From positions 142,888-206,887 of the forward strand of contig MFJF01000005.1 in assembly GCA_001779115.1 (NCBI GenBank): a DNA stretch of 64,000 nucleotides, read 5' to 3'. The stretch's first letter is position 1. Every line of letters starts with the position of its first letter. Of this stretch, positions 5,629 through 60,013 are shown piece by piece. This DNA comes from Candidatus Gottesmanbacteria bacterium RIFCSPHIGHO2_01_FULL_40_15 (GTDB lineage: Bacteria; Patescibacteriota; Microgenomatia; 2-02-FULL-39-11). The notes beneath the pieces are model-generated. The model was not told the origin of the DNA and did no database searches. It worked only from the letters and a program-made list of their open reading frames with translations. The position numbers and the translations under genes were made by a program.

Positions 5629-6717
5629 ATGGTATTATCGATTTCGCTTTTAACCTTATCATCATTTATCATCAGTTTCTCGCTGGTACCTTTAACAATC
5701 TCTCTGGCCAGAAAATACAAGCTGGTTGATGATATCAGGAGCCGACCCCACCCGGCACATACCCATCGCGGCAGCATACCGCGCGCCGGCGGGATTCCGA
5801 TATTTATCGGAATATTTTTACCGATCCTTTTATTTCTTAAGATTAATCCCGCTATCACCGGTATAAGTTTGGGGGCTTTAATTCTAGTATTGACCGGAAT
5901 TTGGGATGACCGGCGTGACCGCTCACCCTATATCAGATTTTTGTTTAATTGCACAGCCGCTTTCGCCGTAATCATTGCCGGAGTTCAGATTCCATATATA
6001 ACCAATCCTATGGGAGGGATTTTACATTTTAACTTTCAAATATCCACAATAAATTTTGCCGGGATGTCATTTTCCATAACAATGGCACAAATTCTAGCTC
6101 TAATTTGGATCGTATGGACAACCAATATTGTCGGCTGGTCGGGAGGAGTTGACGGCCAATTACCCGGTTACGTAGCGATATCGGCTGTTGTTATAGGACT
6201 TTTATCCTTAAGATACATTGCTGATCCCAACCAATATTATGTTACTGCCCTGTCATTTTTAACCGCAGGAGCTTTTTTCGGGTTCCTGCCCTGGAATTTT
6301 TCCCCCCAGAAAATAATGCCCGGATACGGAGGCAAGACTCTGGCCGGTTTTATGCTATCGGTTCTGGCAATTTTATCCTATGCCAAATTCGGAACTGCGC
6401 TTCTGGTTTTGGCAGTACCGATGACTGACGCCGGTTTTATCATTTTTAAGAGAATTTTTACCGGAACATCTCCGGTGAAGGCAACTTCAGGCCATTTACA
6501 TCACCATCTTTTAAACCTAGGATGGAGTAAAAGTAAAATTGCCGTATTTTATTGGGGAATAAGTTTAATTGCCGGATTTCTTGCCTTAATTCTAAATCCC
6601 AGACAGAAATTATTTGCAGCTCTCCTGATTATAATAATAATATCAATGTTTATTCTGTGGATTAATTTTTTCAAAAAGCTGCCTGTTAAACATACCAGCG
6701 AAAATTCCGAGTTCTGA
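5629..6717 (+). CDS. Glycosyltransferase family 4, MraY/WecA-type polyprenyl-phosphate sugar-phosphate transferase
   Basis: 362 aa polytopic membrane protein. Cytoplasmic loop motifs of the MraY/WecA family (VDDIRS...HTHRGSIPRAGG, GIWDDRRD). Confidence 0.8.
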   Translation: MVLSISLLTLSSFIISFSLVPLTISLARKYKLVDDIRSRPHPAHTHRGSIPRAGGIPIFIGIFLPILLFLKINPAITGISLGALILVLTGIWDDRRDRSPYIRFLFNCTAAFAVIIAGVQIPYITNPMGGILHFNFQISTINFAGMSFSITMAQILALIWIVWTTNIVGWSGGVDGQLPGYVAISAVVIGLLSLRYIADPNQYYVTALSFLTAGAFFGFLPWNFSPQKIMPGYGGKTLAGFMLSVLAILSYAKFGTALLVLAVPMTDAGFIIFKRIFTGTSPVKATSGHLHHHLLNLGWSKSKIAVFYWGISLIAGFLALILNPRQKLFAALLIIIIISMFILWINFFKKLPVKHTSENSEF

Positions 6718-6724
6718 AATTACC

Positions 6725-7564
6725 TTACTCGACTTTATCGGCATAACGTCCTGAAATCCAACCTTCTTTACCCTCAGCATAAATGATTTTAATCCAGCCT
6801 GATTTTTCATCAAGGTACGGCACCTTATCGCCTGGTTTTAACTGGCCGACTTCGGTTGCCGAAATTGAAGCATCAAATCTGACCCGAAGAAAACCTGTCG
6901 GAGTTTCATTCACTAAAACGTATGGTTTTGATAACTGATCCCCTTCACCGGTTTGGGTATCAGTTTCCGGTGTCGGAGTGGGTGTTTCTAACTGTTCTCC
7001 GGACAGACTCAGTTGAAAATCTACATTTAAACGGTAATCCGGAACTGCTTTTACTCTGACAGTTCTGCCGATAAATCCGGTTGAAGTGACGGTGATGTCA
7101 TGCTCACCTTCGCTTATAGGAATATTTATAGGAGTTGCCCCTTTTTCCAAACCGTCAATTGATACCGAAGCGGCATCAGGTGTTGAAGAAACTGAAATTT
7201 CGATTTCATCATCACCGATTTTATCCAATGTGATAACTTCTCCTGATGTGGTCAGTTCACTTTGGCCTAATTCTTTTTTTATATAGGTAAGAGTTGACGG
7301 GTTAAGTGTTATTTTGTCCTGCCAAACCGAAGCGGATGATTGGGAATCATCAGGCACAAGTTTTATTACAAAAGAACCGGCAGGGTGACGGCTGTCTAAA
7401 GGTGTTTTTCCAATAAATTTTTCATCCAGATATATTCCGGCTACGGGAGTAGAAACTACTTTTAATCCGGCAACTGATGACTTACCGGCAAATATAAGCT
7501 TATAGAGAATATAGGCTATGGCTGCAAGAAATAAGACAATGACAAGAACAGTCTTCCTGCTCAT
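6725..7564 (-). CDS. Secreted/membrane-anchored PEGA-domain protein with C-terminal SH3b-like domain
   Basis: Start placed at the first in-frame ATG (MSRKTVLVIV..., signal anchor). The ORF track's TTG start at 7600 looks like an over-extension. Two PEGA-like repeats (VSTPVAGIYLDEKFIGKTPLD, VSIDGLEKGATPINIP) and a C-terminal SH3_3-like segment (GFLRVR...GWI..GRYADKV). Confidence 0.55.
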   Translation of the reverse strand: MSRKTVLVIVLFLAAIAYILYKLIFAGKSSVAGLKVVSTPVAGIYLDEKFIGKTPLDSRHPAGSFVIKLVPDDSQSSASVWQDKITLNPSTLTYIKKELGQSELTTSGEVITLDKIGDDEIEISVSSTPDAASVSIDGLEKGATPINIPISEGEHDITVTSTGFIGRTVRVKAVPDYRLNVDFQLSLSGEQLETPTPTPETDTQTGEGDQLSKPYVLVNETPTGFLRVRFDASISATEVGQLKPGDKVPYLDEKSGWIKIIYAEGKEGWISGRYADKVE

Positions 7565-7629
7565 AGACTTTATATTACATGAGAAGAACCTTATTTTCAA
7601 TCGAAATGAAGCAATTCCGACTTGATAAA

Positions 7630-7656
7630 TTAGCAGTCTATATACTAGACTGCTAA
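7630..7656. promoter_or_regulatory. Perfect CIRCE-like inverted repeat TTAGCAGTC-N9-GACTGCTAA (candidate HrcA operator)
   Basis: Read directly: 9-bp arms are exact reverse complements with a 9-bp spacer. It matches the CIRCE consensus TTAGCACTC-N9-GAGTGCTAA at 16/18 positions, and the two changes are symmetric. It lies 66 bp upstream of the PEGA/SH3 ATG and 116 bp downstream of the transposase stop. Confidence 0.45.
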
Positions 7657-7745
7657 TATAAAGTTGCCCTCCGTCTTCCCGGAGGACTTCAGAAGGATGT
7701 GAGACTATATGGCAATTTTAAGATTTGATCCGTTTTCAATGTTAT

Positions 7746-8469
7746 GGGGACGGGGGTAGATTTGAGCCTTGTTATATGCTAAAAGCCTTCATTTTTCTGT
7801 GCGTGGCAAATACTGGATTTCCAATGACATCATTATTATTTTTATACGGATCATATTCATCAAGATTTAGATTCATTCCATCCTTAATAAATTTGAGATA
7901 ATTTTCAATTCTGTTTCCCTTATCACCTAATAGGATGATAATTTTATTCATGTCTATTATCTTTCTTGAACTATTGTTTAAGTACTCTCTTAAACTGCTA
8001 TATTTATATTCTTCCGGGTTTTTGGTCATAGCCGATTTATACGGATTTAGGTGAATATATCTTGAAACTTCCAAAAAATAAGACTCTTTCTGAACAAGCT
8101 TACTTTTAAATCTATCTTGAAATAAAGGTCCCTGTCTATTGTATTTTTTATTGAAATATAGGGAATAACTTGTAAATAATCTCCCCATCAATTTAGCAAT
8201 TGGTGTTCTCTTTTCCTCAACCAGAAAATGATAGTGATTAGGCATTAAACAATAGGCATAAAAACACCAATCACCTTTCCGAAGAAGTCCATTTAATATT
8301 TCAAGCAATCTTTCATAATCTTTATCTTCATGAAATATTTGGTTTTTGTTAAGCCCCCTATTAAAAATGTGATAAAAACCTCCGGGAAATGTCAGTCTAG
8401 CTATTCTTGGCATTAATAATTTTATAGCACTTTTAAGCTGTCAATACAATATATTCTACCCCCGTCCCC
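7746..8469 (-). mobile_element. IS200/IS605-family (HUH Y1 transposase) element bounded by perfect 14-bp inverted repeats
   Basis: GGGGACGGGGGTAG (7746-7759) and its exact reverse complement CTACCCCCGTCCCC (8456-8469) flank the tnpA ORF. The element is 724 bp, the size of an IS200-type insertion, and sits between groEL and the PEGA gene. Confidence 0.55.
7772..8413 (-). CDS. tnpA: Y1 HUH transposase, IS200/IS605 TnpA / REP-associated tyrosine transposase (RAYT)-like
   Basis: 213 aa. HUH motif (LMPNHYHFLVEE) and the Transposase_17 signature RYIHLNP...EEYKYSS carrying the catalytic Tyr region. Confidence 0.8.
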   Translation of the reverse strand: MPRIARLTFPGGFYHIFNRGLNKNQIFHEDKDYERLLEILNGLLRKGDWCFYAYCLMPNHYHFLVEEKRTPIAKLMGRLFTSYSLYFNKKYNRQGPLFQDRFKSKLVQKESYFLEVSRYIHLNPYKSAMTKNPEEYKYSSLREYLNNSSRKIIDMNKIIILLGDKGNRIENYLKFIKDGMNLNLDEYDPYKNNNDVIGNPVFATHRKMKAFSI

Positions 8470-8479
8470 GATATACAAA

Positions 8480-8506
8480 GCCCCGAGAAAATCGGGGCTT
8501 TTTTTT
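8480..8506 (-). terminator. Intrinsic (bidirectional-type) terminator after groEL
   Basis: GCCCCGA-gaaaa-TCGGGGC hairpin 22 bp past the groEL stop. T8 run on the + strand; A-run before and a UUUGUAUAU tract after on the - strand. Confidence 0.5.
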
Positions 8507-8528
8507 GTTTTTGTAATGCTTTAGTTCT

Positions 8529-10175
<1,647 letters not shown>

Positions 10176-31873: not shown

Positions 31874-32344
31874 TTACTTGACGAGAGTTTTTCCCAGATT
31901 ATCCGCCCAGGAAGCCAATTTTTCTGAATTAGTCTGCTGGTCGAGATAAAATCCGTCTATTTTCAATGAATCAACCGCCAATATCCCTTCCAAATCTTTA
32001 ACAAACTGCTCCAGATGATTAACCGCTCCGCAAAAATACGTATAGGATGAATCTCCCAGTCCTAAAACGGCGAATTTTTTACCGGTTATTTTCTTACCTT
32101 TAAAAAGCTCCATAAACGGCCGGTAATCAGGATGAGGTTGTCCCTCTAAACCTTCATAATCCCAAGTGGAAGAGGCCAGAATTACGGCATCGGCATCAGT
32201 CAGTTCTTCCGGTTGAGTATCACGGACTTCCTTCATTGTCACCTGCAAATTTTGACTCATCAGATGTTCCTGAACTATTTGGGAGGCTAACTGTGTTCCG
32301 CCTGAATTGGTGGCATAGACAAGCAGAATATTCATATTATTCAT
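31874..32344 (-). CDS. Flavodoxin
   Basis: Start set at the internal MNNMNILLVYA (the ORF-track extension runs into the SOS promoter). Short-chain flavodoxin pattern (LVYATNSGGT...SSTWDYEG...). Confidence 0.8.
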   Translation of the reverse strand: MNNMNILLVYATNSGGTQLASQIVQEHLMSQNLQVTMKEVRDTQPEELTDADAVILASSTWDYEGLEGQPHPDYRPFMELFKGKKITGKKFAVLGLGDSSYTYFCGAVNHLEQFVKDLEGILAVDSLKIDGFYLDQQTNSEKLASWADNLGKTLVK

Positions 32345-32378
32345 ATTACAATACCTGCCCCCCGGTGACAAGCGACTC

Positions 32379-32407
32379 TTGACAGGTGAACGATCGTTCA
32401 CTATAAT
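32379..32407 (+). promoter_or_regulatory. Consensus sigma-70 promoter (TTGACA-N17-TATAAT) with LexA/Cheo-type SOS box TGAACGATCGTTCA (32387-32400) in the spacer
   Basis: Read directly. The -35 and -10 are exact consensus with a 17-nt spacer. The spacer carries a perfect 14-bp palindrome matching the Gram-positive-type LexA box GAAC-N4-GTTC. It is upstream of the small-ORF/lexA/Y-polymerase operon. Confidence 0.65.
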
Positions 32408-32597: not shown

Positions 32598-33170
32598 ATG
32601 AAGCTTGAAACAGCCAAAAATTTAATCAGAAAATTCTTCCGGCAACAGAAAAGACTGCCTTCCTATCAGGAGATGTGCCGCCTTTTCGGTTTTGCCTCCA
32701 AACAGTCCAGTTTCCGCCTGGCGAAAAAACTTGTTGAGGAAGGCACCTTAAAGAAGGACGATAAAGGCAGACTTGTTCCCGGACGTTTATTTTCCGCTCT
32801 GCCTATTGCCGGAATAATTGCCGCCGGCATGCCGAGAGATGCTTCGGAGACTCTTTTAGATTCATTATCTTTTGACGATTATCTGGTGAAAAAACCGGGG
32901 AATTCCTACCTGCTGCGGGTATCGGGCGACTCCATGATTGAAGCCGGCATTAATGAGGGTGACCTGGTGGTAGTTGAGAAGGATAAATTGCCGGGAGAAG
33001 GCGATGTGGTAGTGGCTTTTATAGACGATGAATTTACCCTCAAGCATTTTTCCCGAAAAAATAGCAGAATAGCCCTGTTTCCGGCGAATAAAAAATATCC
33101 GGTGCTCTACCCCAGAAATCAACTGTCGATTTTCGGCACGGTCGTTGCAGTAATCCGGAAATACCACTGA
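32598..33170 (+). CDS. lexA: LexA repressor (S24 peptidase)
   Basis: 190 aa. N-terminal wHTH, cleavage-site region AG (IIAAGMP), Ser (GDSM) and Lys (LKHF) of the S24 catalytic dyad. Confidence 0.9.
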   Translation: MKLETAKNLIRKFFRQQKRLPSYQEMCRLFGFASKQSSFRLAKKLVEEGTLKKDDKGRLVPGRLFSALPIAGIIAAGMPRDASETLLDSLSFDDYLVKKPGNSYLLRVSGDSMIEAGINEGDLVVVEKDKLPGEGDVVVAFIDDEFTLKHFSRKNSRIALFPANKKYPVLYPRNQLSIFGTVVAVIRKYH

Positions 33171-33204
33171 TAATAATTTTTCCCGCCACGGAGGTCACCG
33201 TTTT

Positions 33205-33468
33205 ATGAGTGAAGTCATCAATGAAAAAATCAGCGTTATCTCTTTTTATGACAGGAATAAAGGCAAGAGTTGGCCTGTTAAGTTTTTTTGGCAGGGAAGA
33301 TCCTACAAAATCCGGCAGGTAGGCTATCATTGGCCCGCCAGAATAGGAAGGAAACTGGTTCATATTTATTCTGTTGTGGCCGAAAATAACACCTCATTTA
33401 AACTGGTGCATGATACGGAAACGCTTCACTGGATTTTGGAGGAGGTTATCGATGAATTTGCCACTTAA
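33205..33468 (+). CDS. Hypothetical 87-aa protein translationally coupled to Y-family polymerase (possible YolD/UmuD-functional-analogue)
   Basis: Overlaps the polymerase start by 17 bp. A GGAGG for the polymerase lies inside its 3' end. No recognisable motif. Proposed role comes from position only. Confidence 0.4.
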   Translation: MSEVINEKISVISFYDRNKGKSWPVKFFWQGRSYKIRQVGYHWPARIGRKLVHIYSVVAENNTSFKLVHDTETLHWILEEVIDEFAT

Positions 33469-34705
33469 CCGGAATCGCCCTGCCATTATGCATATTGATC
33501 TTAATTCCTGCTTTGCCTCAGCTGAACAGCAGGCTTATCCGGTTTTGCGGGGAAAACCTCTGGTCATTGCGGCATATACCACACCGGGAGGCTGCGTTGT
33601 CGCCCCTTCGGTTGAAGCTAAACAATTCGGCATAAAAACCGGCATGACGGTGCGGGATGCCAGACTCCTTTGTAAAGATATTATCGTCCGCGACCCTGAT
33701 CCCCAACTTATCCGTGATATCCATCTCAAATTCAGGAAAGTCTTATCCGATTACTCGCCGAATCTTACCCCCAAATCAATTGACGAACTGGTTATAGATT
33801 TTGAAGGGACATTGAGCTTTAAAAGAGGACTTGTTGAGATCGGAAAAGAAATGAAACAGCGGATAAAAAAAGAAGTCGGTGAATGGATTTCCTGCAATAT
33901 CGGCATAGCCACCAACCGGTTCCTGGCGAAACTGGCCGCATCTTTGCATAAACCCGACGGACTGGACATTGTCACCGATAAAAATTTAAGAGAAGTTTAT
34001 GCGTCCCGCACCCTGACGGATCTTAACGGCATTAATACGCGTTATGAGGCGCGGCTGAACGCATGCGGCATATTTACTCCCTTACAGTTTCTTAACGCTT
34101 CTTTGGATATTCTTAAAAAAAGAGTCTTTAAAAGCATCAACGGTTACTACTGGTATTTGAGACTGAGGGGCTGGGAGATAGACGCTGTTGAATTTGCCCG
34201 AAAAAGTTACGGACAGTCATATGCTTTAAAGGAGCAGACGGATGATCCGAAAAAATTAATCCGGTTACTTATGAAGCTTTGCGAAAAAATGGGCCGGAGA
34301 CTCAGAAAGAGAAACTATCAGGCATACGGAATTCATGTGGCTTTAGTTTATACGGACATGACTTACTGGCATATGGGAAGAACCCTTCAGATTCCCCTTT
34401 ATTCAACTGCTGACCTTTACAGAAAAGCAGTCTGGATTTTTAACCGGCAGCCCCAACAAAAAAAAGTCAGGGATTTGGCGGTAAGCTGCTTTCATCTTGA
34501 AAGTACCCAACCGGAACAGCTGGATCTGTTTGATTCGGAGATGAAAAACAATAAAAATGTCATTAAAGCGGTTGATGCGATTAACGACAAATACGGAGAA
34601 CTTATCGTTACTCCGGCCCTGATGATGGGAATGAAAAACGTGATAATTGACAGAATTGCCTTCGGGGGGGTCAGCGAACTGGAAGATATATATTTAGCCC
34701 GATAA
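33452..34705 (+). CDS. Y-family translesion DNA polymerase (DinB/UmuC-like)
   Basis: Start at the internal ATG with a GGAGG RBS. IMHIDLNSCFASAEQ (catalytic D, FxS, E) N-terminus, fingers/palm/little-finger architecture, 417 aa. Confidence 0.85.
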   Translation: MNLPLNRNRPAIMHIDLNSCFASAEQQAYPVLRGKPLVIAAYTTPGGCVVAPSVEAKQFGIKTGMTVRDARLLCKDIIVRDPDPQLIRDIHLKFRKVLSDYSPNLTPKSIDELVIDFEGTLSFKRGLVEIGKEMKQRIKKEVGEWISCNIGIATNRFLAKLAASLHKPDGLDIVTDKNLREVYASRTLTDLNGINTRYEARLNACGIFTPLQFLNASLDILKKRVFKSINGYYWYLRLRGWEIDAVEFARKSYGQSYALKEQTDDPKKLIRLLMKLCEKMGRRLRKRNYQAYGIHVALVYTDMTYWHMGRTLQIPLYSTADLYRKAVWIFNRQPQQKKVRDLAVSCFHLESTQPEQLDLFDSEMKNNKNVIKAVDAINDKYGELIVTPALMMGMKNVIIDRIAFGGVSELEDIYLAR

Positions 34706-34777: not shown

Positions 34778-35398
34778 TTATTTTTTTATCGCTTCTTCGA
34801 CGGCTTTGTCCAGATCGGTACGGGAAAAGAGATTCAGTTTTTTGCCGTTTAAAAAAAAGGTAGGAGTGGCGTCAACCCCGAATTTTCTGCCGTCTGTAAG
34901 ATCACGGTTAATCTTATCCTGATATTTTTTCTCTTTATAGGCTGCTTCAAAATTTTCTTTATCAAGACCCAACTTTTCAGCGGCTTCAAGAAGAAATTGC
35001 TCAGACAAATTTTCCTGATTTTCAAAAATATAATCATGCATTTCCCAAAATTTACCCTGTTCTCCGGCGGCTTCGGCTGCGAGGGCTGCCGGCCAAGCCT
35101 GTTCATGCTGATCCAAGGGAAAATGCCGGTATGCAAAAACCAGATTATCCTTATTGTCCTCCACAACGTTTTTCACCTGGGGATAAAACGATCCGCAGGC
35201 AGGACACTGGAAATCGGAAAATTCAATCAGACAGTTTCTCGCTTTTTCATTTCCTTTTTTATAAGAATCTGAAGTGAGAATTTCCTGACAAGTGAAAGCC
35301 GGAGCGGGCCGGGACAGGAAAAATATTCCTCCTATAACCAGAATTACCGTTACCAGGACGATACCGATTAAAAATTTTGATTCTCCGCTTAATTTCAC
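34778..35398 (-). CDS. DsbA-family thiol:disulfide oxidoreductase (thioredoxin fold), membrane-anchored
   Basis: 206 aa. N-terminal TM and the CPAC active site in an FSDFQCPACGSFYP context. Confidence 0.8.
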   Translation of the reverse strand: MKLSGESKFLIGIVLVTVILVIGGIFFLSRPAPAFTCQEILTSDSYKKGNEKARNCLIEFSDFQCPACGSFYPQVKNVVEDNKDNLVFAYRHFPLDQHEQAWPAALAAEAAGEQGKFWEMHDYIFENQENLSEQFLLEAAEKLGLDKENFEAAYKEKKYQDKINRDLTDGRKFGVDATPTFFLNGKKLNLFSRTDLDKAVEEAIKK

Positions 35399-35838
35399 TT
35401 TGTCCGCCTTTCCAGTTGATACATTTTAAGACCAATAATAAAGATTATCAACATATTCAAAGCAGATATAGCGCACCAGGTACAAACAGCTTTAATATAA
35501 AATATTTCCGTATAAGTAAACCAACCGACAAATAATACTCCGAAAACGGCAATAGCCAGGATTGCTTTCAGAAGTTTTAAGTCTTGGGAAACCGATCTGG
35601 CAAAGGTGAGAATCATCAACACAAAATAGCCGATCAAACCGACCAGGGGTACAGGTATGCCCAAGGGGTAGCTGTAAGGACTTTTTCTGACTATTTCACA
35701 ACCTTCATTGACGCAGACAATTGATGTTTTTTTTATAAAACCGTAAAGCACATAAACGGCTATTATTACGCCGATTATCGACAGGATAAAAACTATCCTA
35801 TTAAGAACTTTTTTTGTTAATTTAATATTTTCAGCCAT
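35395..35838 (-). CDS. Vitamin K epoxide reductase (VKOR)-family protein
   Basis: 147 aa. Four TM helices, loop Cys pair (CVNEGC) and TM4 CxxC (CTWC). Overlaps the dsbA-like start by 4 bp, the classic VKOR-DsbA pairing. Confidence 0.75.
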   Translation of the reverse strand: MAENIKLTKKVLNRIVFILSIIGVIIAVYVLYGFIKKTSIVCVNEGCEIVRKSPYSYPLGIPVPLVGLIGYFVLMILTFARSVSQDLKLLKAILAIAVFGVLFVGWFTYTEIFYIKAVCTWCAISALNMLIIFIIGLKMYQLERRTK

Positions 35839-35888: not shown

Positions 35889-36101
35889 ATGTGTTTTTCA
35901 ATCCCCTACCGAGTTGAAAAAATTGTAAATAAAACAGCAATTCTTGAAGGCGGAAAAAAAGCCGGAGTTGATGAAAATCTCAAAGTAAAAAAAGGCGATT
36001 ATTTGCAAATCGCCGGGAATATGGCTGTCAGGAAAATTTCTGCCGGAGAGGGACTTAAGATCAGAAGATTAATTAAAACTTTATACAATAATGGAAAATA
36101 A
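35889..36101 (+). CDS. hypC: [NiFe]-hydrogenase maturation factor HypC/HupF family
   Basis: 70 aa beginning MCFSIP (the MC(L/I)(A/G)(I/V)P N-terminus with Cys2 essential in HypC) and a hVGxxA-like C-terminal half. Confidence 0.75.
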   Translation: MCFSIPYRVEKIVNKTAILEGGKKAGVDENLKVKKGDYLQIAGNMAVRKISAGEGLKIRRLIKTLYNNGK

Positions 36102-37008
36102 TATCAAAAAAGGGGTTATTCTGTCTTTAATAACGGCGGTTATATCGGGAATTGCAATTTTTTATAACAAACAGGTTTTGGTAAAGGGCATCGATCCTTT
36201 AATTTTCAACATCATAAAAAACGGCGGTACCGCGTTAATTTTATCCTTTTTCATTTTGGGAAGAAATCCCCGCATATCAAGCTTGTCAAGGCGGCACCTT
36301 GACAAGTTTGACAAGAGGCTGATACTGATCGGATTGATCGGAGGAAGTCTGCCTTTTATCCTTTATTTTCAGGGTTTAACCGAATCAACGCCGGTTGTGG
36401 CCAATTTAATCCATAAAACACTTTTTATATGGGTAGCCATATTTTCGGTTTCTGTTTTAAAGGAAAAACTGTCATATTATCAAATAATCGGATACCTTTT
36501 AATTATTTTTGCAAATTTTTTTATCGGCGGACTTACCCAATTTAAATTTGGAGTTCCGGAAATTTTCATTTTATCGGCCACTCTTTTATGGTCTTTTGAA
36601 AATATAATTGCCAAAATTGTACTAAAAAAAACAGAAAGCAGCACTGTTGCCTGGGGCAGGATGACATTTGGTACTGTATTTCTTATTTTTATTGCCGTTA
36701 TTTCGGGTAAAGCACAGCTCATTTGGCAGGTTGCGCCTGAACAAATTCTACCAATTTCAGGAAGTATCATTCTGCTGACTTTATACGTAATTACCTGGTA
36801 TAAAGCCCTTAAATATGCTCCGGCAACACTGGTTACGTCGATTCTGATCCTTGCCACACCGGTCACCAATTTTTTATCGGCAGTAACAATTACCCGTGAT
36901 TTTTCACCGATAATTTCCGTTAACTCTTTGGCTGTATTGACCGGTGTTATCCTGATTAGTGTTATTACTTCGGGAAAGTATCAAAGTGCCAGGAAATATT
37001 ATCAGTAA
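36091..37008 (+). CDS. EamA/DMT-superfamily transporter
   Basis: 305 aa. 10 TM helices in two EamA repeats. Overlaps the hypC end by 11 bp. Confidence 0.75.
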   Translation: MENNIKKGVILSLITAVISGIAIFYNKQVLVKGIDPLIFNIIKNGGTALILSFFILGRNPRISSLSRRHLDKFDKRLILIGLIGGSLPFILYFQGLTESTPVVANLIHKTLFIWVAIFSVSVLKEKLSYYQIIGYLLIIFANFFIGGLTQFKFGVPEIFILSATLLWSFENIIAKIVLKKTESSTVAWGRMTFGTVFLIFIAVISGKAQLIWQVAPEQILPISGSIILLTLYVITWYKALKYAPATLVTSILILATPVTNFLSAVTITRDFSPIISVNSLAVLTGVILISVITSGKYQSARKYYQ

Positions 37009-37753
37009 CGGCAAACCGATTTGCGGACTTTACCAATGCTGCCGGTTTTCTTATCCGCCAAATTCTCTTTCGTTATGCGGACCGGCTAAAGCTTCAAACC
37101 TCCGGCATTATTCACTAACCGGCTTAACTGATATTGGAACCGCAGAAATTCTGTCACAATTTTCAACTCTTTATCCTTACTTGTGTTTAATTGCATATGA
37201 AAATAAAATCAGCGATCCCTTTGACAATCGGGTAGTTGAAGCCTACTGGCTAGGCAACTCATTACTATACAAAATTAAAAAATCCGCTTTTTATAATCTT
37301 CTAAATGAGAAGCTGTCCTTAAGAAAAAAACTAAACCGGAGTGATTTGGAGATTATTTCCAATAAATTCCGGTATGAATCGGTTCCCCATCATTCCTTCC
37401 ATGTTTTAAACATATATATAAGGACCGGACATTTTGATTTACCGCACACATTAGAAACCATGGACGCCTGTCTAGTCAATTACGGAAAAATTATTTCCAT
37501 CTCCAAGGGAAAAATCAGAATCCGGACACAAAGACTGAAACAATTCAAGGGAAAGCTTTATATGGAAAAAAACTGCATAAAAGAAATAAGTAAACAGGGA
37601 GCACATGACATCCTCTTTCAATCATTATCGGTTGGTGATGATGTCAGTTACCATTGGGGATTTCTGACATCAAGGTTAACTCTGAGGCAACGCGCTAATC
37701 TGAAATATTTTACCGGGTTATCCGTCAATCTGGCCAATGCGAAAAATTTATGA
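36959..37753 (+). CDS. Hypothetical Cys-rich protein in hydrogenase-maturation operon
   Basis: 264 aa. N-terminal CGLYQCCRFSYPPNSLSLCGP (4 Cys in 18 aa). No recognised family. The only in-frame ATG overlaps the EamA gene by 50 bp, so the start is uncertain. The stop overlaps the endopeptidase start by 4 bp. Confidence 0.4.
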   Translation: MLLLRESIKVPGNIISNGKPICGLYQCCRFSYPPNSLSLCGPAKASNLRHYSLTGLTDIGTAEILSQFSTLYPYLCLIAYENKISDPFDNRVVEAYWLGNSLLYKIKKSAFYNLLNEKLSLRKKLNRSDLEIISNKFRYESVPHHSFHVLNIYIRTGHFDLPHTLETMDACLVNYGKIISISKGKIRIRTQRLKQFKGKLYMEKNCIKEISKQGAHDILFQSLSVGDDVSYHWGFLTSRLTLRQRANLKYFTGLSVNLANAKNL

Positions 37754-38133
37754 AAAGAATAATTTATTGCCTCGGCAATCCACTTATTCAAAAGGACAGT
37801 CTGCCTTTAAAATTAATGCCTCATTTAAAGGCAATTTTACCTTCTTATAATTTTGAAGTATTTGATCCGACTGAGGTAAGCGACATTTCTGATAATTCAA
37901 TATTTCTAGATACAGTTACGGGAATTAATAAAGTTAAAATATTTACCGGCCTGAAGTATTTTTTACTTTCACCCCGCAACAGTGTTCACGACTATGATTT
38001 ACCCCTGTTATTGGGATTAATGCTTAAACTGGGAAAAATAAAAAAATTCAAAATCATCGGTGTCCCGGCAAATTATTCTTTTGAAGAAGCATATGAATCC
38101 GTAAAAGGATGTCTTAAAGATAACGGAATTTAA
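37750..38133 (+). CDS. Hydrogenase maturation endopeptidase (HycI/HybD family)
   Basis: 127 aa. N-terminal (L/C)LGxGN-like CLGNPLIQKD with a conserved Asp, and a later SVHDYD His region. Converges on and overlaps the large-subunit gene, whose product carries a short extension after DPCxxCxxH. Confidence 0.6.
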   Translation: MKRIIYCLGNPLIQKDSLPLKLMPHLKAILPSYNFEVFDPTEVSDISDNSIFLDTVTGINKVKIFTGLKYFLLSPRNSVHDYDLPLLLGLMLKLGKIKKFKIIGVPANYSFEEAYESVKGCLKDNGI

Positions 38134-39406
38134 GGAAATGCGAGGCGCAACTCATACAGGGATCATACGCCCTGACTATTGATTCAATTGTGTGTTCCAG
38201 GGATGATTTGTCCTTAATGGCCGCCATATTATCAATTATGAATTGGCGGATAGATTCTTCAATGCCGATCTGATTTTGTCCGGTGGGAACAACTATCCGG
38301 CCGTTTTTAATCTTTCCGCCTGCGTCAACTTCCAAACGGTAGTAAAGTGTACCGCGCGGAGCTTCAACAACCCCAACACCAATGCTTTCCTTTCTTTGAA
38401 GAACAACCTGACTCTCGGGATAAATTTTGATATTATTGATAATTTCCAGTGAAGAATCAACGGCGTGAAGAATTTCAATGGCCTGGGCTAAATTATTGTG
38501 ATAAATATTTTGTGACGGAAATATTTTGAGATATTTTTCCGTATCTTTTACAGTTCTTTTGTGAAGCTTATCTTTGGCCAGGTTCAAACGGGCCAAAGCC
38601 CCGACCATGTAGGTTTTACCCAAATATTTGTAGCCTGTCGCATGGGAATAAGGAATAATAACTTTTTCCAGATAATCTCCGAATTTTTTCTCCCCGACAA
38701 TATCTCCGTTACTACTAAAAAGAGAACCGGACAGGAACGACAGTTCATCATCAATAAGTGAGGCATACAGTAAATTTTTTCTGAGTAAACGGCCGTCTTT
38801 TTTAAAAAACAGGTCTATTAAATCTAATACCAGAGGTCTTATTTTTTCCAATTGTTCGCCCGTCTTTTTTAAATCATCAGTTAAGGGTAGCCTGGTAAAT
38901 CCCCCGGGGATAATAAAGGGTGCATGGACACTTCTGCCGCCGACTGTTTTACCCAGTTGATTACCGGCTGCTTTTACAATAAACGCATTATGGAGCATCT
39001 GATGCTCTAATGAATCACTTTCATCAAAATCCAGTATTGAATCCTTACCGAAAAGATCAGGCAGTACAAAAACATACAAATGAAGAGCATGATCCCTGAT
39101 AAACAGACCGTAATTTAATAGTTTTCTTAAATTCACTGTCTGAGGGCTGACTGAAACAGCCAAAGCATTTTCAACAGCTTTAACGGCACATAAAAGATGA
39201 GCATTTGAGCAAGTACCGCAGATACGGGCAGTCAACTGGGGAAGCGCGGCAATATCTTTTCCCCTTATAGCCTGAGTATAAAACCTCTTATATTCGGCAA
39301 TGGAAAATTTTATATCCTGAAGTTTTCCGTTCCTAATTTTTATCTCACAGGAAGCTTTGCCTTCAATTTTAGATATATCCGATAATGACAGATCAAGATT
39401 ATGCAT
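38114..39406 (-). CDS. [NiFe]-hydrogenase large subunit (group-3-type L1/L2 motifs)
   Basis: 430 aa. L1 motif RICGTCSNAH and L2 motif DPCMSCASH, followed by a 7-aa C-terminal extension (FLKFRYL). Confidence 0.9.
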   Translation of the reverse strand: MHNLDLSLSDISKIEGKASCEIKIRNGKLQDIKFSIAEYKRFYTQAIRGKDIAALPQLTARICGTCSNAHLLCAVKAVENALAVSVSPQTVNLRKLLNYGLFIRDHALHLYVFVLPDLFGKDSILDFDESDSLEHQMLHNAFIVKAAGNQLGKTVGGRSVHAPFIIPGGFTRLPLTDDLKKTGEQLEKIRPLVLDLIDLFFKKDGRLLRKNLLYASLIDDELSFLSGSLFSSNGDIVGEKKFGDYLEKVIIPYSHATGYKYLGKTYMVGALARLNLAKDKLHKRTVKDTEKYLKIFPSQNIYHNNLAQAIEILHAVDSSLEIINNIKIYPESQVVLQRKESIGVGVVEAPRGTLYYRLEVDAGGKIKNGRIVVPTGQNQIGIEESIRQFIIDNMAAIKDKSSLEHTIESIVRAYDPCMSCASHFLKFRYL

Positions 39407-39409
39407 GGG

Positions 39410-39889
39410 TTATTTAATGCCGAATTCTTTAAAATAACGGTTAATTAACTCTAAAAATTGAGCTTCATTCATCGGACAGCCCGCCACCGTATCATCAACC
39501 CGGACAATATCAGCAACTTTTTTTACATTCTGAGTATAATCAAAAGTAATCAGGACATTATTAATCTCCCCTTTCAAATCTTTTTGAAAAGTATTTCTTT
39601 GTGATGAAGGCATTCCTATTACGGCACATGATCCGACAGCCACAAGCTTTTTAGCGTTATTTCGGATTGTTAACAGTTTTTTTTCCTGGGATTTTGAAGT
39701 TATTGCTCCTTCAATGAAAGCCACATCCAAATCAACAGGATTGCTTTTTTTCTGCAAAATAAGCATAGAACGGAAATCGATCAGATTCCTCCATTCCAAA
39801 TAATAATCATTTAACAGTTCGGTGAAAATAATTGTCGAGTCTTCACTGCAGGAAAAAGAAAACCAACCGATTTTAAGTTTATTATTCAT
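39410..39889 (-). CDS. [NiFe]-hydrogenase small subunit, minimal NuoB/HycG-like (proximal-cluster only, 3 Cys)
   Basis: 159 aa. Motifs FSCSED (NuoB CCxxE position with one Cys replaced by Ser), VGSCAVIGM (NuoB GxCAxxGG-like) and AGCP (GCPP-like). Start is 4 nt after... on the - strand it directly precedes the large subunit. Confidence 0.7.
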   Translation of the reverse strand: MNNKLKIGWFSFSCSEDSTIIFTELLNDYYLEWRNLIDFRSMLILQKKSNPVDLDVAFIEGAITSKSQEKKLLTIRNNAKKLVAVGSCAVIGMPSSQRNTFQKDLKGEINNVLITFDYTQNVKKVADIVRVDDTVAGCPMNEAQFLELINRYFKEFGIK

Positions 39890-39898
39890 TTTTTTACC

Positions 39899-39927
39899 AG
39901 ATTACTCTCATTTTTCCGGTTAGTCAA
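39899..39927 (-). promoter_or_regulatory. Putative sigma-70 promoter of the hydrogenase structural operon (TTGACT-N17-TAATCT)
   Basis: On the - strand: TTGACT (39927-39922), 17-nt spacer, TAATCT (39904-39899), about 10 nt upstream of the small-subunit ATG. A short or no leader is implied. Confidence 0.4.
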
Positions 39928-39985
39928 TTCCGATTTAATCCTTTACAAGACTATTTTATTTCTTTTATGCTGTTATTATAGTTAT

Positions 39986-41494
39986 ATGAAGTTAAAAGTC
40001 AGGGGCAAAATAATTATTGCCTTGGTTTTTAGTACCATAATCTTTACAGCTTTGAATTTGACCGCATTTATTCCGGGCGGGAATATTAATCGGCTATTGA
40101 CTTTCGCAGGCGGTGTCATCCTCATGACCGGTCTTACCGCAATAGTATATTTATTTTTTAATTCAGCCATAAACAAATTTAAACAGTCTTTAGAAAAAGT
40201 AGAAAAAAACATTCTCAATACCGATGCTTCCATGAGTAAAAATTTAGATATTGAAGATATGGCAACATCATTTGATTTACTTATTAATCAGGTCCAGGAA
40301 AAAGAAGGCAATTTAAAAAATGAAGAAAAAAAGATGGAATCCATGCTGCAGGCATTATCTGAGGCCGTAATAGCTATTGACGAAAGTTTCCGGATACTGG
40401 TCTTCAATAAAACCGCGGAATTATTTACCGGTTTTACAGCTCAAACTGTCATGGGAAAACATATTGATGAAATAGTACAACTTTACGGCGGAGACGAAAA
40501 AATCGTCTTATCCAATTATATCCAAAAGCCGGATGAACTGGCGTCCATTCACCGGGAAAGAGGCCTGCAGATTAAATCTCAATCGGAAAAAATATTTTAC
40601 GTTTCAATCGATGTGGCGCCTTTAGTCTTTGGGAGCGGAGAAAGCCACGGATATATTCTGACTTTTTATGATGAAACAAATCAAAAAGCGCTTGAAGAAA
40701 TGAAACTCGATTTCGTTTCAATGGCAGCTCATGAACTCAGAACCCCCCTAACAGTTATCAGAGGTTATGCCGAATTATTAAATTCCGAAATCGGGGAAAA
40801 ACTGTCTCCTGAACACCAGGAACATTTACACAGACTTTCTTATAATGCCAGCAATTTAGGCACTTTAATAGATAATCTTCTAAATGTGTCAAGAATAGAA
40901 AGAGGTTCATATAAAATCGAGCCTGTTCCGGTTGATCTTCTGTCTCTGGTCAGAAATACTGTAACCGACATGGTAGATCAGGCAAACAGTAAAGGGCAGA
41001 AACTTATATTTACAGAACCTGATGAAAAAGTGCCTCTTGTTTTGGCTGATCAATCAAGAATAAATCAGGTGTTAACTAACCTGATTACCAACGCAATTAC
41101 TTATACTCCGGTTGGTGAATCAATAACCGTTTCCATTTCAAGAAAAGATTCTTTTGTCGGTGTTACCGTAAAAGATACCGGAATTGGAATTCCTAAAGAA
41201 GCTTTATCCAAGCTGTTTACTAAATTTTTCCGGGTTTCAAGCGTACTGGAACAGGGTTCAAAAGGAACAGGATTGGGACTTTTTATTTCCAAATCAATTA
41301 TTTCCATGCACGGCGGAGACATTTCAGTTGACAGTGAACTGGGAAAAGGTTCAACATTTATTTTTACCCTGCCGATCGCAACAAATGTACCGGTTGACCA
41401 GTTAATCTCCCCTGCACCAATAGGAAGAACCGGAAAAGGAATTATGATTAATCCTGAAAGAATGGCCCAACGTATTTCCGGGGGTCAGTTATAA
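39986..41494 (+). CDS. Sensor histidine kinase (TM-PAS-HisKA-HATPase_c)
   Basis: 502 aa. Two N-terminal TMs, a PAS-like region, H-box AAHELRTPLTVIRGY, and N, G1 (DTGIGI) and G2 (GTGLGL) boxes. Confidence 0.85.
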   Translation: MKLKVRGKIIIALVFSTIIFTALNLTAFIPGGNINRLLTFAGGVILMTGLTAIVYLFFNSAINKFKQSLEKVEKNILNTDASMSKNLDIEDMATSFDLLINQVQEKEGNLKNEEKKMESMLQALSEAVIAIDESFRILVFNKTAELFTGFTAQTVMGKHIDEIVQLYGGDEKIVLSNYIQKPDELASIHRERGLQIKSQSEKIFYVSIDVAPLVFGSGESHGYILTFYDETNQKALEEMKLDFVSMAAHELRTPLTVIRGYAELLNSEIGEKLSPEHQEHLHRLSYNASNLGTLIDNLLNVSRIERGSYKIEPVPVDLLSLVRNTVTDMVDQANSKGQKLIFTEPDEKVPLVLADQSRINQVLTNLITNAITYTPVGESITVSISRKDSFVGVTVKDTGIGIPKEALSKLFTKFFRVSSVLEQGSKGTGLGLFISKSIISMHGGDISVDSELGKGSTFIFTLPIATNVPVDQLISPAPIGRTGKGIMINPERMAQRISGGQL

Positions 41495-41511
41495 TAGAAT
41501 TAGAAATCAAT

Positions 41512-42213
41512 ATGAAAACGATACTTATTGTTGAAGATGATTTTCATATCCAGGATATTTACCGGATGGCTTTTCTTAAAACCGGAAATTATTCCGTGGA
41601 AACAGCATCTGACGGCCAGGAAGCGTTGGTTAAATTAAGAGCTCATGTCTATGACCTGATTCTTTTGGATATCATGCTGCCAAAAGTTACCGGAATCGAT
41701 GTACTTCGGGCTATGAGGTCACCGAGTTCACCGACAAGAGATACGCCGATAATTCTTATTACGAATTTGGGCCAGGAAGACATAATAAAAGAGGCGTTTA
41801 AAATAGGTGCAGACGGTTATTTGATAAAAGCCCAATTTACACCAAATGATGTCGTGGCTGAAGTTGACGCGTTTTTCGAGCAAATGGCTCAAATAAAAGA
41901 ACAACCTACGCCGGCACAACAATCTTCCCCAGCAGCAGCAGCTTCGGTACTTGGAAATGATGAAAACACAGCCCCGACCCAGCCAACTCCGGTTATGACT
42001 CCGGCAGCCTCACAACCCGTTAATGAACAAAATTCAACAACGACGGCGCTATCAGGTAATAAATCGAGCTCTGATTCAGATCAAACAGTTTCATCAAATC
42101 CGATGGGACAAAATATGCCAAATGATACGCCAGTTCCTCCCCCGGAGTCAGCCGGTGAAAACCTTCCCGGTGATGGAAAAGCGGATATAAGTCCAGGTAA
42201 AACTTCCGTCTAA
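41512..42213 (+). CDS. Response-regulator receiver domain fused to ~110-aa Pro/Thr/Ser/Gln-rich disordered tail (no output domain)
   Basis: 233 aa. REC domain (DD...D52 in LLDIMLP...K) up to about residue 120, then a low-complexity tail. Confidence 0.8.
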   Translation: MKTILIVEDDFHIQDIYRMAFLKTGNYSVETASDGQEALVKLRAHVYDLILLDIMLPKVTGIDVLRAMRSPSSPTRDTPIILITNLGQEDIIKEAFKIGADGYLIKAQFTPNDVVAEVDAFFEQMAQIKEQPTPAQQSSPAAAASVLGNDENTAPTQPTPVMTPAASQPVNEQNSTTTALSGNKSSSDSDQTVSSNPMGQNMPNDTPVPPPESAGENLPGDGKADISPGKTSV

Positions 42214-42553: not shown

Positions 42554-43117
42554 TTATTTCTCTTTAATAAGAATAGGGACAAGCATCAGAACTATAATCA
42601 GAAGAAAAGCGGTCGCAGCCATCAACGGAATTGTTATATACCCCAGTTCCATGACAAAACTGTTAGAGCAGGATACGGAATAGCCGATTGTACTGCAGGG
42701 TAAGATAGACTGACCCCCTCTTTGAAGATAATAATGATAAAAGGCGATAACAATGCCGATTCCTGACAGGGTAATCAGGTAATCATTTATACTTTTGTCT
42801 TTTTTCCAAATCGCCAGGCTTAAAAGCAGCGGCATCGGATACATTAAAATCCGCTGAAACCAGCAGAGTTTACAGGGCTCAAAACCGGCTATTTCGGAAT
42901 AAAACAGACTGCCTAATGTTGCCGTCAGAGAGACTATTAAAGCCAAATGATAGGAATATTTTACTATTTTTCTAAAAATACTGTTTTTTACGAATTTAAG
43001 CTTTTTTTTATTCAGAAAATAAAAGAGGAAAATTACTAAAAATGAAATACCAATAACCTGTCCGAAAACCGTTAAAATCGCGAGTATCCGGTTGACTAAG
43101 AAAACTGACTGATTCAT
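42554..43117 (-). CDS. DsbB/BdbC-family disulfide bond formation protein
   Basis: 187 aa, 4 TM. CKLCWFQRILMYP matches the BdbC/DsbB CxLCWYQR active-site loop. Second Cys pair CSTIGYSVSC. Confidence 0.65.
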   Translation of the reverse strand: MNQSVFLVNRILAILTVFGQVIGISFLVIFLFYFLNKKKLKFVKNSIFRKIVKYSYHLALIVSLTATLGSLFYSEIAGFEPCKLCWFQRILMYPMPLLLSLAIWKKDKSINDYLITLSGIGIVIAFYHYYLQRGGQSILPCSTIGYSVSCSNSFVMELGYITIPLMAATAFLLIIVLMLVPILIKEK

Positions 43118-58634: not shown

Positions 58635-59108
58635 TCAGAATTTCCGGGAAATGTAAACACCAATCAAATGGGAAAGTAATATTACGATGACGGCAATCGA
58701 AATATGCTCCATAATCACAAATCCGGGAGATTCTTTTTTATGCCGGGCTATCAAATAACTGAAAAAAGTGAGGATCGTAATGCCCCAGATTATACTGAAA
58801 ATGATGGCCTGAGATAAATCAAGCAAAATTACCGGAATTATAAATGTTACGGTAATGAAAAATTTGGCAAGCCAGGCTGATATTGTTGATTCCCAAATAT
58901 CCCTGAAAGTACTGCCAGGCCGGGCTTCCTGGGAAATATGGATACCAAGAGCATCTGAAAAAGCATCGGCAACGGCGATGGTCAGAATTCCGCCGATAAC
59001 CGGCAACCTGGAGTGGGTACCGGCATTTAAACCGACAATCAAACCCAGTGTAGTTATTATACCGGAAGTCAATCCGAAGCTGAGACCGGTTTGGAAAGAC
59101 AGTCGCAT
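58635..59108 (-). CDS. VIT1/CCC1-family membrane domain protein (transporter domain only)
   Basis: 157 aa, 4-5 TM. GGILTIAVADAFSDALG resembles the VIT family core. Paralogous to the C-terminal half of the adjacent gene. Confidence 0.5.
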   Translation of the reverse strand: MRLSFQTGLSFGLTSGIITTLGLIVGLNAGTHSRLPVIGGILTIAVADAFSDALGIHISQEARPGSTFRDIWESTISAWLAKFFITVTFIIPVILLDLSQAIIFSIIWGITILTFFSYLIARHKKESPGFVIMEHISIAVIVILLSHLIGVYISRKF

Positions 59109-59119
59109 AGTTTATAATT

Positions 59120-60013
59120 TCAGGTTTCTATTCCCAGACTTTTTCGCAGAATAATCCCGATAGCAAAACTGACAGCGGCAACACCCATACTGATTACCAG
59201 CATTTGGGTAAAATGCTTTTTGAAAGAAATCTGTTGAGCCACCGAAACATAAAAAGAGAAAAAGACTATGATGAGGACGGCAATCATAAGAGTCATAACG
59301 AGAGAAAAATATACCCGGGATAAAATTAGATAAGGTGAAATAAGGAGTAAAACTACAATAAGGTAAGCTGTGCCGGTATACAACGAAGCTCTGAGGGCAT
59401 CTTTATCATTTTTTTCTTCTGATTTTATTGACAGATATTCCGAGGCAGCCATTGATAAGGAAGCGGCCACACCGGTAATAAAGCCGACCAGTGCAATAAG
59501 AGCGGAGTCAGCCAATGCAAAAGTCAGACCGGCTAAAGCTCCCGTCAATTCAACCAGGGCATCATTTAACCCAAGAACAATGGAACCGACATATTTTAGA
59601 AAGCGGTCATTTATAAGATTAAGCGTGTCAAGTTCATGCCTGTCTTCATCGGTTATTATTTTTTCGATGCGGGGAATCTTTGCGGAAAAATCCCGATAAG
59701 CCACTTGGGCATTTTCTTCACCCAACTCCATTAATTTAGTTGTAAACATTAAACCCAAAATTCTGGCCAAGGAGCTATAGAAAAATACTTTTAAGCGGTC
59801 AGCCGGGACATCCTGCTTTGATATTTTTTTCCAAAAGTTATAATGCCGATATTCATCATCGGCAATTGTTTTTAGTATTTTTTTATTTTCCGGATTTTTG
59901 GATAAGCGGGATAAGTTTTTATAAACATAATATTCGGTAATTTCCGATCTCTGGAAATTTTTAATCTTTACTAAATCATCATGATTCATATCTGCTAACT
60001 TTGAGTTTATCAT
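59120..60013 (-). CDS. MbfA-like membrane-bound ferritin (erythrin/ferritin-like diiron domain + VIT1 transporter domain)
   Basis: 297 aa. N-terminal ExxH diiron motifs (DDEYRHYNFW, TDEDRHEL) followed by a VIT1-like TM domain. Confidence 0.7.
   Translation of the reverse strand: MINSKLADMNHDDLVKIKNFQRSEITEYYVYKNLSRLSKNPENKKILKTIADDEYRHYNFWKKISKQDVPADRLKVFFYSSLARILGLMFTTKLMELGEENAQVAYRDFSAKIPRIEKIITDEDRHELDTLNLINDRFLKYVGSIVLGLNDALVELTGALAGLTFALADSALIALVGFITGVAASLSMAASEYLSIKSEEKNDKDALRASLYTGTAYLIVVLLLISPYLILSRVYFSLVMTLMIAVLIIVFFSFYVSVAQQISFKKHFTQMLVISMGVAAVSFAIGIILRKSLGIET

Follow-up and report, generated by a model that had tools for sequence, protein, structure and literature searches.

hyd2, a two-subunit [NiFe]-hydrogenase of CPR bacteria and DPANN archaea: truncated small subunit and candidate cluster ligands

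A 64,000-nucleotide stretch of Candidatus Gottesmanbacteria bacterium RIFCSPHIGHO2_01_FULL_40_15 (assembly GCA_001779115.1, contig MFJF01000005.1, positions 142,888 to 206,887 of the forward strand; hereafter the window) encodes a [NiFe]-hydrogenase of two subunits, hyd2. We read hyd2 as a natural minimal heterodimer in which one [4Fe-4S] cluster would be held by Cys14, Asp17, Cys88 and Cys138 of the small subunit, and in which electrons would be exchanged with a separate ferredoxin-type partner. Moderate confidence is placed in this reading as a whole. Among natural [NiFe]-hydrogenases its architecture is probably the smallest. hyd2 occurs in hundreds of genomes of Candidate Phyla Radiation (CPR) bacteria and DPANN archaea and has never been characterized biochemically.

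The architecture itself is already published. CPR hydrogenases related to group 3b have been split into hyd1, which has beta and gamma subunits, and hyd2, which has a small subunit truncated to ~164 aa, no co-located beta and gamma genes and a hypC-like family in the vicinity; in the authors' words "its function remains uncertain" (Jaffe et al. 2020, BMC Biol 18:69, PMC7304191). The small subunit in the window has 159 aa, within a family range of 155–176 aa, and by length, context and taxon the window hydrogenase appears to be an ordinary member of this clade. An initial annotation of the window had called the architecture undescribed, which is wrong because the window fits the published description of hyd2. 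For the window itself the outcome is therefore mostly a correction: the architecture is a published one and is not NuoB-like. What looks new here is the proposed ligand shift and a CPR/DPANN-wide, probable maturation cassette with DUF6390 and EamA proteins. On our reading, PMC7304191 does not report the C14/D17 shift, the Ser15 sub-variant, the protease/DUF6390/EamA cassette or the DPANN members.

The hyd2 operon and its truncated small subunit

At least 796 homologous small subunits of ~159 aa were found, so this form of the protein is not due to chance. Relatives occur in the genomes of at least 422 species of CPR bacteria and DPANN archaea (one genome per species was scanned). Eighty hyd2 loci with 50–72% identity to the window were retrieved (some counts are given over the 84 loci fetched; single loci and proteins are cited below by L and P numbers). 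CPR hosts among the 80 loci are Gottesman-, Roizman-, Woese-, Moranii- and Jacksonbacteria, and DPANN hosts are Woese-, Pace-, Micr-, Aenigmat- and Nanoarchaeota and Iainarchaeum. The closest small-subunit relatives are Gottesmanbacteria proteins with 71–72% identity. The closest relatives come from metagenome-assembled genomes of Gottesmanbacteria and Roizmanbacteria (RIFCSP, RBG, GW2011 and CG series), which presumably overlap the genome set sampled in the study that defined hyd2. The operon is found in CPR bacteria and DPANN archaea at 50–57% identity across domains (L005–L084), implying inter-domain transfer among ultra-small organisms. The label "uncultured Gammaproteobacteria" on many of the hyd2 records is probably wrong.

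The large subunit carries the L1 motif RICGTCSNAH at residues 60–69 (RICGTC at 60–65, with C62 and C65) and the L2 motif DPCMSCASH at residues 415–423 (C417 and C420), followed by a 7-aa tail, FLKFRYL. The two-gene operon with canonical motifs and tail had been described in the initial annotation and is borne out by the open reading frames (ORFs) and the PF00374 match (Table 1). L1 is kept in 73/76 related loci and L2 in 68/76, and 65 of the 68 relatives with an intact L2 motif end in a tail of 7–11 aa. One subclade of large subunits (L054, L065, L082 and L084) has DPCMSCATN at L2, with Asn where a His normally forms the C-terminus of the mature protein. In a search of the Protein Data Bank (PDB) the large subunit aligned over its full length with alpha subunits of group 3b enzymes from P. 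furiosus and T. kodakarensis (E ~1e-54), and scored 188 bits against group 3b, versus 147 for 3c and 105 for 3d. The leading NCBIfam models were ShyA (248 bits, E 1.8e-73), HydA (209), VhuA (122) and FrhA (102), all far under the equivalog cut-offs of 700–880. The earlier assignment to group 3 stands, with group 3b the nearest.

The small subunit has the same affinity. A profile built from 26 family members matched the delta subunit of P. furiosus soluble hydrogenase I (SHI) at 3e-16, MvhG/VhuG at ~1e-12, HoxY at 2.5e-10 and FrhG at ~1e-9. The small subunit was modelled with AlphaFold2 (mean predicted local distance difference test score, pLDDT, 87.5), and Foldseek placed P. furiosus SHI delta first, then single-cluster HydS (7t2r_E) and HoxY (5xf9_C). 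The alignment with the 261-aa SHI delta ends at residue ~150, and the domain for the medial and distal clusters is absent. Only 3 bases separate the two genes, and because the small-subunit stop lies this close to the large-subunit start there is no space for a missing iron-sulfur (FeS) domain. On this evidence the small subunit is a truncated group 3b delta. It contains exactly three cysteines, C14 (FSCSED), C88 (GSCAV) and C138 (AGCPM). The 159-aa, single-cluster, three-cysteine protein that had been annotated is thus confirmed; its third motif, given before as GCPP, is GCPM.

Candidate ligands of the single cluster

Cys14, Asp17, Ser18, Cys88 and Cys138 are invariant across 193 unique small subunits, and Glu16 is also family-invariant. 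At the N-terminal motif the family as a whole favours FSFS-C-C-E-D-S-T-I as its consensus; the window reads C-S-E-D-S. Position 15, where canonical small subunits have their first cysteine, is Cys in 151/193 (78%) and Ser or Thr in 42/193 (22%). The second canonical cysteine, at position 18, has been lost across the hyd2 family, where Ser, Asn or Thr is found. One truncated homologue, P0172 (167 aa), is without any cluster ligand.

The window belongs to the minority with Ser15. Its codon 15 is AGT, one base off the Cys codon TGT. Ser15 is shared by P0001, a 99% identical sequence from another source, and by the closest relatives P0002 and P0004 (71–72% identity), and such variants are spread over CPR and DPANN members. 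A sequencing error at this codon was rejected on the strength of these sequences and of the 42/193 proteins with Ser or Thr. The initial annotation was right that FSCSED replaces the tandem CC, the family being divided into 78% CC and 22% CS or CT; its proviso that a corrected read might restore a fourth cysteine fails, as Ser15 is kept in both independent and related sequences.

Intermediate forms of the motif were recovered by an exhaustive search of 50%-identity representatives, in a gapless alignment at 30–45% identity. At positions 14–18 canonical relatives read x-C15-E-G-C18. C14-C15-E-G-C18 is found in many full-length relatives and C14-D15-E-G-C18 in one branch, and hyd2 has C14-[C/S]15-E-D17-[S/N/T]18. 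Relatives with C-x-G-D or C-x-G-E motifs were also present. Because canonical relatives have Gly at position 17, Asp17 arose together with the loss of Cys18.

In the AlphaFold2 model Cys14 lies two residues before a helix spanning residues 16–33, and Asp17 sits in the first turn of that helix. The CxxC of canonical small subunits is placed likewise relative to the helix. Cys14 and Asp17, each one position upstream of a canonical cysteine, would form a register-shifted C-x-x-D pair, in which the canonical first cysteine is dispensable and the second replaced. We infer that Cys14, Asp17, Cys88 and Cys138, three cysteines and one aspartate, hold a cluster of the [4Fe-4S] type. Proximal clusters with three cysteines and one aspartate are documented for FrhG of group 3a, where the ligand is Asp60 (PMC3930138), and for the actinobacterial-type hydrogenase (AH) of C. 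necator in group 1h (PDB 5AA5; PMC11023054). The fourth ligand, left open in the initial annotation, is less so now: the invariant Asp17 is the obvious candidate, with FrhG and C. necator AH as precedents. If Asp17 is a ligand, hyd2 would be the third, positionally distinct case of carboxylate ligation at the proximal cluster of a hydrogenase.

Several observations weigh against aspartate ligation. Asp17 stands opposite Gly, not opposite a canonical cysteine, in both HMMER and MAFFT alignments, so that ligation would require a local shift of the backbone. Where C14 and C15 stand in tandem, as they do in 78% of the family, the pair could provide two ligands and Asp17 would not be needed. Three cysteines are equally compatible with a [3Fe-4S] cluster. 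Finally, the invariance of the motif within the 80 loci is partly circular because one of the two patterns used to retrieve them was SFSC[CS]EDST; two sequence sets gathered independently of the motif agree on the invariance.

The best of the competing accounts we regard as possible but doubtful. It keeps the same enzyme but gives the window protein a [3Fe-4S] cluster held by Cys14, Cys88 and Cys138, and the CC variants a [4Fe-4S] cluster held with their tandem cysteines in the manner of N2 in complex I. Asp17 would then not be a ligand but would tune potential or protonation from the second sphere. The three cysteines of the window protein, the alignment of Asp17 with Gly rather than with the lost cysteine, the retention of Cys15 beside Cys14 in most of the family and the occurrence of [3Fe-4S] clusters in other hydrogenase small subunits, for example Huc, all suit this account. 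Against it, Asp17 is invariant in 193/193 proteins whether position 15 is Cys or Ser, the change of canonical Gly17 to Asp coincided with the loss of Cys18, and Asp-ligated proximal clusters are documented. We therefore prefer ligation by Cys14, Asp17, Cys88 and Cys138.

Candidate redox partners, probable maturation genes and neighbours

Since hyd2 has no internal relay, electrons would pass directly between its cluster and a separate docking partner. No partner gene lies within 24 kb on either side of hyd2 in the window. For this host the partner would most likely be a ferredoxin-type carrier, or pyruvate:ferredoxin oxidoreductase (PFOR, or POR) directly, encoded elsewhere, and hyd2 would vent fermentative reductant as H2 or run in reverse. 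An engineered alpha-delta dimer of P. furiosus SHI is active and receives electrons directly from POR (Hopkins et al. 2011, PMC3200332).

Relatives offer more direct pointers. A small ferredoxin with the motif C-x-x-A/G-x-x-C...C-P is encoded near hyd2 in ~10/80 loci. In L088 one operon (5859–9299) encodes a ferredoxin (91 aa), a Pyr_redox_2 flavoprotein (414 aa), the small subunit and the large subunit. The contig that carries it is 478 kb long and labelled Pacebacteria, and genes for HypC/D/E/F and a Suf cluster flank the operon. L051 carries the same flavoprotein and ferredoxin. In some DPANN archaea the small subunit has a thioredoxin reductase (TrxR)-like flavoprotein (PF07992, with the motif CVNCDG) joined to its N-terminus (P0121, 500 aa; L059, 2994–4487; L063, 8025–9539) or encoded just upstream of it (L037 and L070), which suggests an H2-linked disulfide or thioredoxin reductase. 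P0126 (702 aa) combines a NuoF-like FMN/NADH module (PF01512 and PF10589) with a hyd2-type small subunit, one of the Cys-Ser variants; a long linker rich in Pro and Thr connects the two. Judged from these gene arrangements, which show non-homologous proteins attached to the same small subunit, the single hyd2 cluster would be a plug-in point for varied partners. A further fusion protein, P0247 (576 aa), consists of a small-subunit domain, ferredoxin domains and a Fe_hyd_lg_C domain like that of [FeFe]-hydrogenases.

Two points weigh against a ferredoxin-type partner. A partner gene is missing from about 80% of the loci, the window included, and it is thus a minority of the relatives on which the assignment depends. 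Furthermore, the gene content of the host was read from the 64-kb window only, which bears on PFOR and ferredoxin as well as on HypD/E/F. The flavodoxin of the window, proposed earlier as a candidate electron partner, was rejected, being near hyd2 in 1/84 loci only, that of a close relative.

The plus-strand cassette that converges on the large-subunit gene (35889–38133) contains a putative HycI-type protease and a DUF6390 protein with a HypC-like domain and is for this reason read as a set of maturation genes rather than redox subunits (Table 1). In the family of this 127-aa protein G9, D16, D54 and H80 are invariant, and 13/20 members match PF01750 (HycI), with a best E of 2.5e-6. The window protein itself has no Pfam or NCBIfam match, and the family profile has no match in the PDB. 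Aligned by hhalign with a single E. coli HycI, the family has the metal triad in register (E 0.1, not significant). The ~130-aa family thus looks to be a divergent HycI-type endopeptidase. It would remove the 7-aa tail of the adjoining large subunit, and a HypC-type chaperone would assist maturation. The 70-aa HypC-like protein scores 27.1 bits against PF01455, below the cut-off of 28.5, and 22.7 bits against TIGR00074 (E 6.6e-5), where the cut-off is 48. It begins with MC as expected, and the conserved His of GDYVLVHVGFA is Ala in the window.

The observations on DUF6390 concern the window and L001, L004, L083, L060 and L088. C40, H145, H148, C171 and H232 are invariant in the protein, and its model (pLDDT 82.8) has a Cys/His-rich helical domain followed by an oligonucleotide/oligosaccharide-binding (OB) fold. 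By eye, A-C171-L-x-N-x-G-K and G-D-x-x-S-Y-H-W-G-F resemble MCLGIPG and GDWVLVHVGFA of HypC; by hhalign the match to HypC is weak, local and confined to the second motif (E 0.059). A literature search found no papers on DUF6390. It is probably a maturation factor. The possibility that it is the missing redox subunit was rejected, as it has no FeS-type motif, has a HypC-like C-domain and is largely absent from DPANN loci. In L083 EamA and DUF6390 are fused in a 558-aa ORF. EamA could, at a guess, carry nickel or some other precursor of the cofactor.

Two loci have Hyp genes beside hyd2. In L060 a HypA-like protein, HypC, HypD, HypE and HypF are encoded directly upstream, and in L088 a convergent protease-like gene past the large subunit is followed by HypC, HypD, HypE and HypF. 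In some hosts at least, hyd2 is therefore matured as a genuine Ni-Fe enzyme. Together with the conserved L1 and L2 motifs, the tail and the adjoining putative protease family, HypACDEF in these two loci make a functional Ni-Fe site likely. EamA and DUF6390 are absent from both, which hints at a lineage-specific maturation route. The best 120 matches of a HypD search were from DPANN archaea and one record labelled "Pacebacteria"; none was on a Gottesmanbacteria contig with hyd2. A fuller version of our reading, in which a minimal hyd2 with a C14-x-x-D17 cluster, two dispensable canonical N-terminal cysteines and a ferredoxin-type partner is served by a CPR cassette of HypC-like, EamA and DUF6390 proteins that replaces some of the Hyp machinery, is tentative and on balance unlikely.

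Two further explanations were weighed. The first, which is very unlikely, is an ordinary NAD(P)-linked group 3b tetramer, with genes for the beta and gamma (diaphorase) subunits at another place in the genome. The large subunit does find its best matches in P. furiosus sulfhydrogenase alpha, and the visible genome is 64 kb. The small subunit, however, has 159 aa rather than ~260, and the whole C-terminal domain with the medial and distal clusters, which in the tetramer are thought to wire delta to beta, is gone. This truncation is uniform over hundreds of genomes, and the partners that do adjoin hyd2 (ferredoxin, Pyr_redox_2, TrxR-like and NuoF-like proteins) are non-homologous. Genes for beta (FeS) and gamma (FAD/NAD(P)) subunits are not conserved neighbours in the 80 related loci, nor were they found to be consistently associated with hyd2 in the published description (PMC7304191). 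In the window, Pfam detected no diaphorase, Ech/Hyc membrane subunit, ferredoxin or HypA/B/D/E/F among 50 ORFs, the remaining ORFs being taken as housekeeping from their sequences; the earlier statement that diaphorase and membrane subunits are absent nearby holds. hyd2 is routinely annotated as an enzyme of group 3b linked to NADPH; for CPR and DPANN hosts this is almost certainly mistaken.

The second, of slightly lower probability still, is a regulatory hydrogenase that senses H2 and signals through the PAS-HisKA-HATPase kinase and response regulator encoded directly upstream on the opposite strand. Such a role would suit a minimal small subunit with no encoded partner. The kinase and regulator, however, adjoin hyd2 in 5/84 loci only, all from close Gottesmanbacteria, and elsewhere a Crp-type regulator or none is found; the sensor was rejected on this count. 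In addition, the hyd2 large subunit has a C-terminal tail and a putative dedicated protease, neither of which group 2b sensor hydrogenases are known to have, and its sequence affinity is to group 3b, not group 2.

The minimal heterodimer with a separate, ferredoxin-type partner remains our preferred reading. Knowing its cluster chemistry and partner would alter models of H2 metabolism in ultra-small symbionts and would provide a compact scaffold for engineered H2 production.

The other features of the region are listed in Table 1. Position 39927, where the interval of the initial annotation ended, falls in the 96 bp of intergenic sequence that precede the histidine kinase, a divergent gene starting at 39986. 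A consensus scan found a sigma-70-like promoter match ~85 nt upstream of the small-subunit start; it is weak evidence, the scan having returned 23 sites in the region where 14.8 were expected. An Rfam scan of the window gave no match. The VKOR and DsbA pair directly beside the cassette is syntenic in Gottesmanbacteria relatives, and a DsbB-like protein is encoded farther along; by their sequences these proteins would give this CPR genome a capacity for extracytoplasmic disulfide formation. The window also encodes a LexA-like S24 peptidase followed by a Y-family polymerase, an IS200-type transposase, and a rubrerythrin-like domain fused to a VIT1 domain next to an ORF with a weak VIT1 match.

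Table 1. Coordinates of features in the window and, where counted, their occurrence in related hyd2 loci
Feature	Positions	Strand	Remarks	Related loci
IS200-type Y1 transposase	7772-8413	-
Flavodoxin	31874-32401
LexA-like S24 peptidase, then Y-family (ImpB/UmuC-type) polymerase	32598-34705	+
VKOR and DsbA pair	34778-35838	-
HypC/HupF-like protein (putative chaperone), 70 aa	35889-36101	+	N-terminal MC motif; PF01455 E 4.6e-6	~50/80 (HypC-like protein)
EamA/DMT-family transporter, 305 aa	36091-37008	+	PF00892	54/84
DUF6390 protein	36959-37753	+	true start probably ~36986; helical N-domain and HypC-like OB-fold C-domain	39 by profile search (35 without duplicate loci)
Divergent HycI-type maturation endopeptidase (putative), 127 aa	37750-38133	+	convergent with large subunit, 20-nt overlap of its 3' end	70/84 (~130-aa protease-type gene, usually convergent just after large subunit)
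hyd2 [NiFe] large subunit, 430 aa	38114-39406	-	PF00374 E 2.4e-27	80/84 (with small subunit)
hyd2 small subunit, 159 aa	39410-39889	-	PF01058 E 1.1e-16	80/84 (with large subunit)
Sigma-70-like promoter match	39975-40002	-	CTGACT-16-TATAAT
PAS histidine kinase and response regulator	39986-42213		divergent from hyd2	5/84
DsbB-like protein	42554-43117	-
ORF with VIT1 match	58635-59108	-	sub-threshold, 23.7 bits vs cut-off 28.1
Rubrerythrin-like domain fused to VIT1 (iron transporter) domain	59120-60013	-

Comparison with known hydrogenases and complex I

The initial annotation had proposed a chimera that pairs group 3 catalytic chemistry with a small subunit in the style of complex I or group 4 (NuoB/HycG), and this can hardly be maintained. 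The small subunit is indeed similar in size to NuoB, the family consensus does contain a tandem CC, and the Pfam family PF01058 carries NuoB's name. The 26-member profile nevertheless matched NuoB/PSST chains at E ~0.2, only around GCP, and MbhJ at E 1.2, far behind group 3b delta. NCBIfam gave 2e-12 for HydD versus 4e-4 or worse for NuoB models, and query-normalised template modelling (TM) scores from Foldseek were 0.69–0.81 for group 3 small subunits versus 0.50–0.60 for complex I/NDH-1 subunits. When NuoB and HycG of E. coli, both with verified sequences, were aligned by MAFFT, the CC of NuoB came to lie three residues downstream of that of hyd2. Furthermore, full-length group 3 relatives already have CC-E-G-C, so the extra cysteine arose inside group 3. 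With the profile, NCBIfam and fold searches all putting group 3 small subunits far ahead, affinity to NuoB/HycG was rejected, and the CC of hyd2 appears to resemble that of NuoB by parallelism only.

What hyd2 shares with NuoB/Nqo6 of complex I, which holds cluster N2 with tandem cysteines, is a small, single-cluster PF01058 protein and, in the consensus, adjacent cysteines. They differ in that the tie in sequence is marginal, the CC is out of register and the window copy has no tandem cysteine. The better likenesses lie within group 3. HoxY of NAD+-reducing group 3d and HydS of HydABCSL are small subunits of ~180 aa with a proximal cluster only, and the hyd2 model gives target-normalised TM scores of 0.65–0.69 with them. 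Both are wired permanently to FeS and flavin subunits from their own operons, of which hyd2 in the window has none, and their sequences are less similar to hyd2 than group 3b delta is.

FrhG and C. necator AH offer the precedent for a carboxylate in place of one cysteine at a proximal [4Fe-4S] cluster. In the C-x-G-D/E relatives Asp or Glu stands where canonical proteins have their second cysteine, whereas in hyd2 the Asp comes one residue earlier and the first ligand would be shifted as well. From hyd2 as described by Jaffe et al. the window enzyme shows no essential difference. P. furiosus SHI (group 3b; PDB 9nez and 9e1j) provides the closest solved structures for both subunits, at ~25–30% identity to the window proteins. 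Its delta subunit has ~260 aa, three clusters and a canonical CxxC, and the native enzyme is an NADP-linked tetramer. The engineered SHI alpha-delta dimer, an active two-subunit 3b core, is the functional analogue of hyd2.

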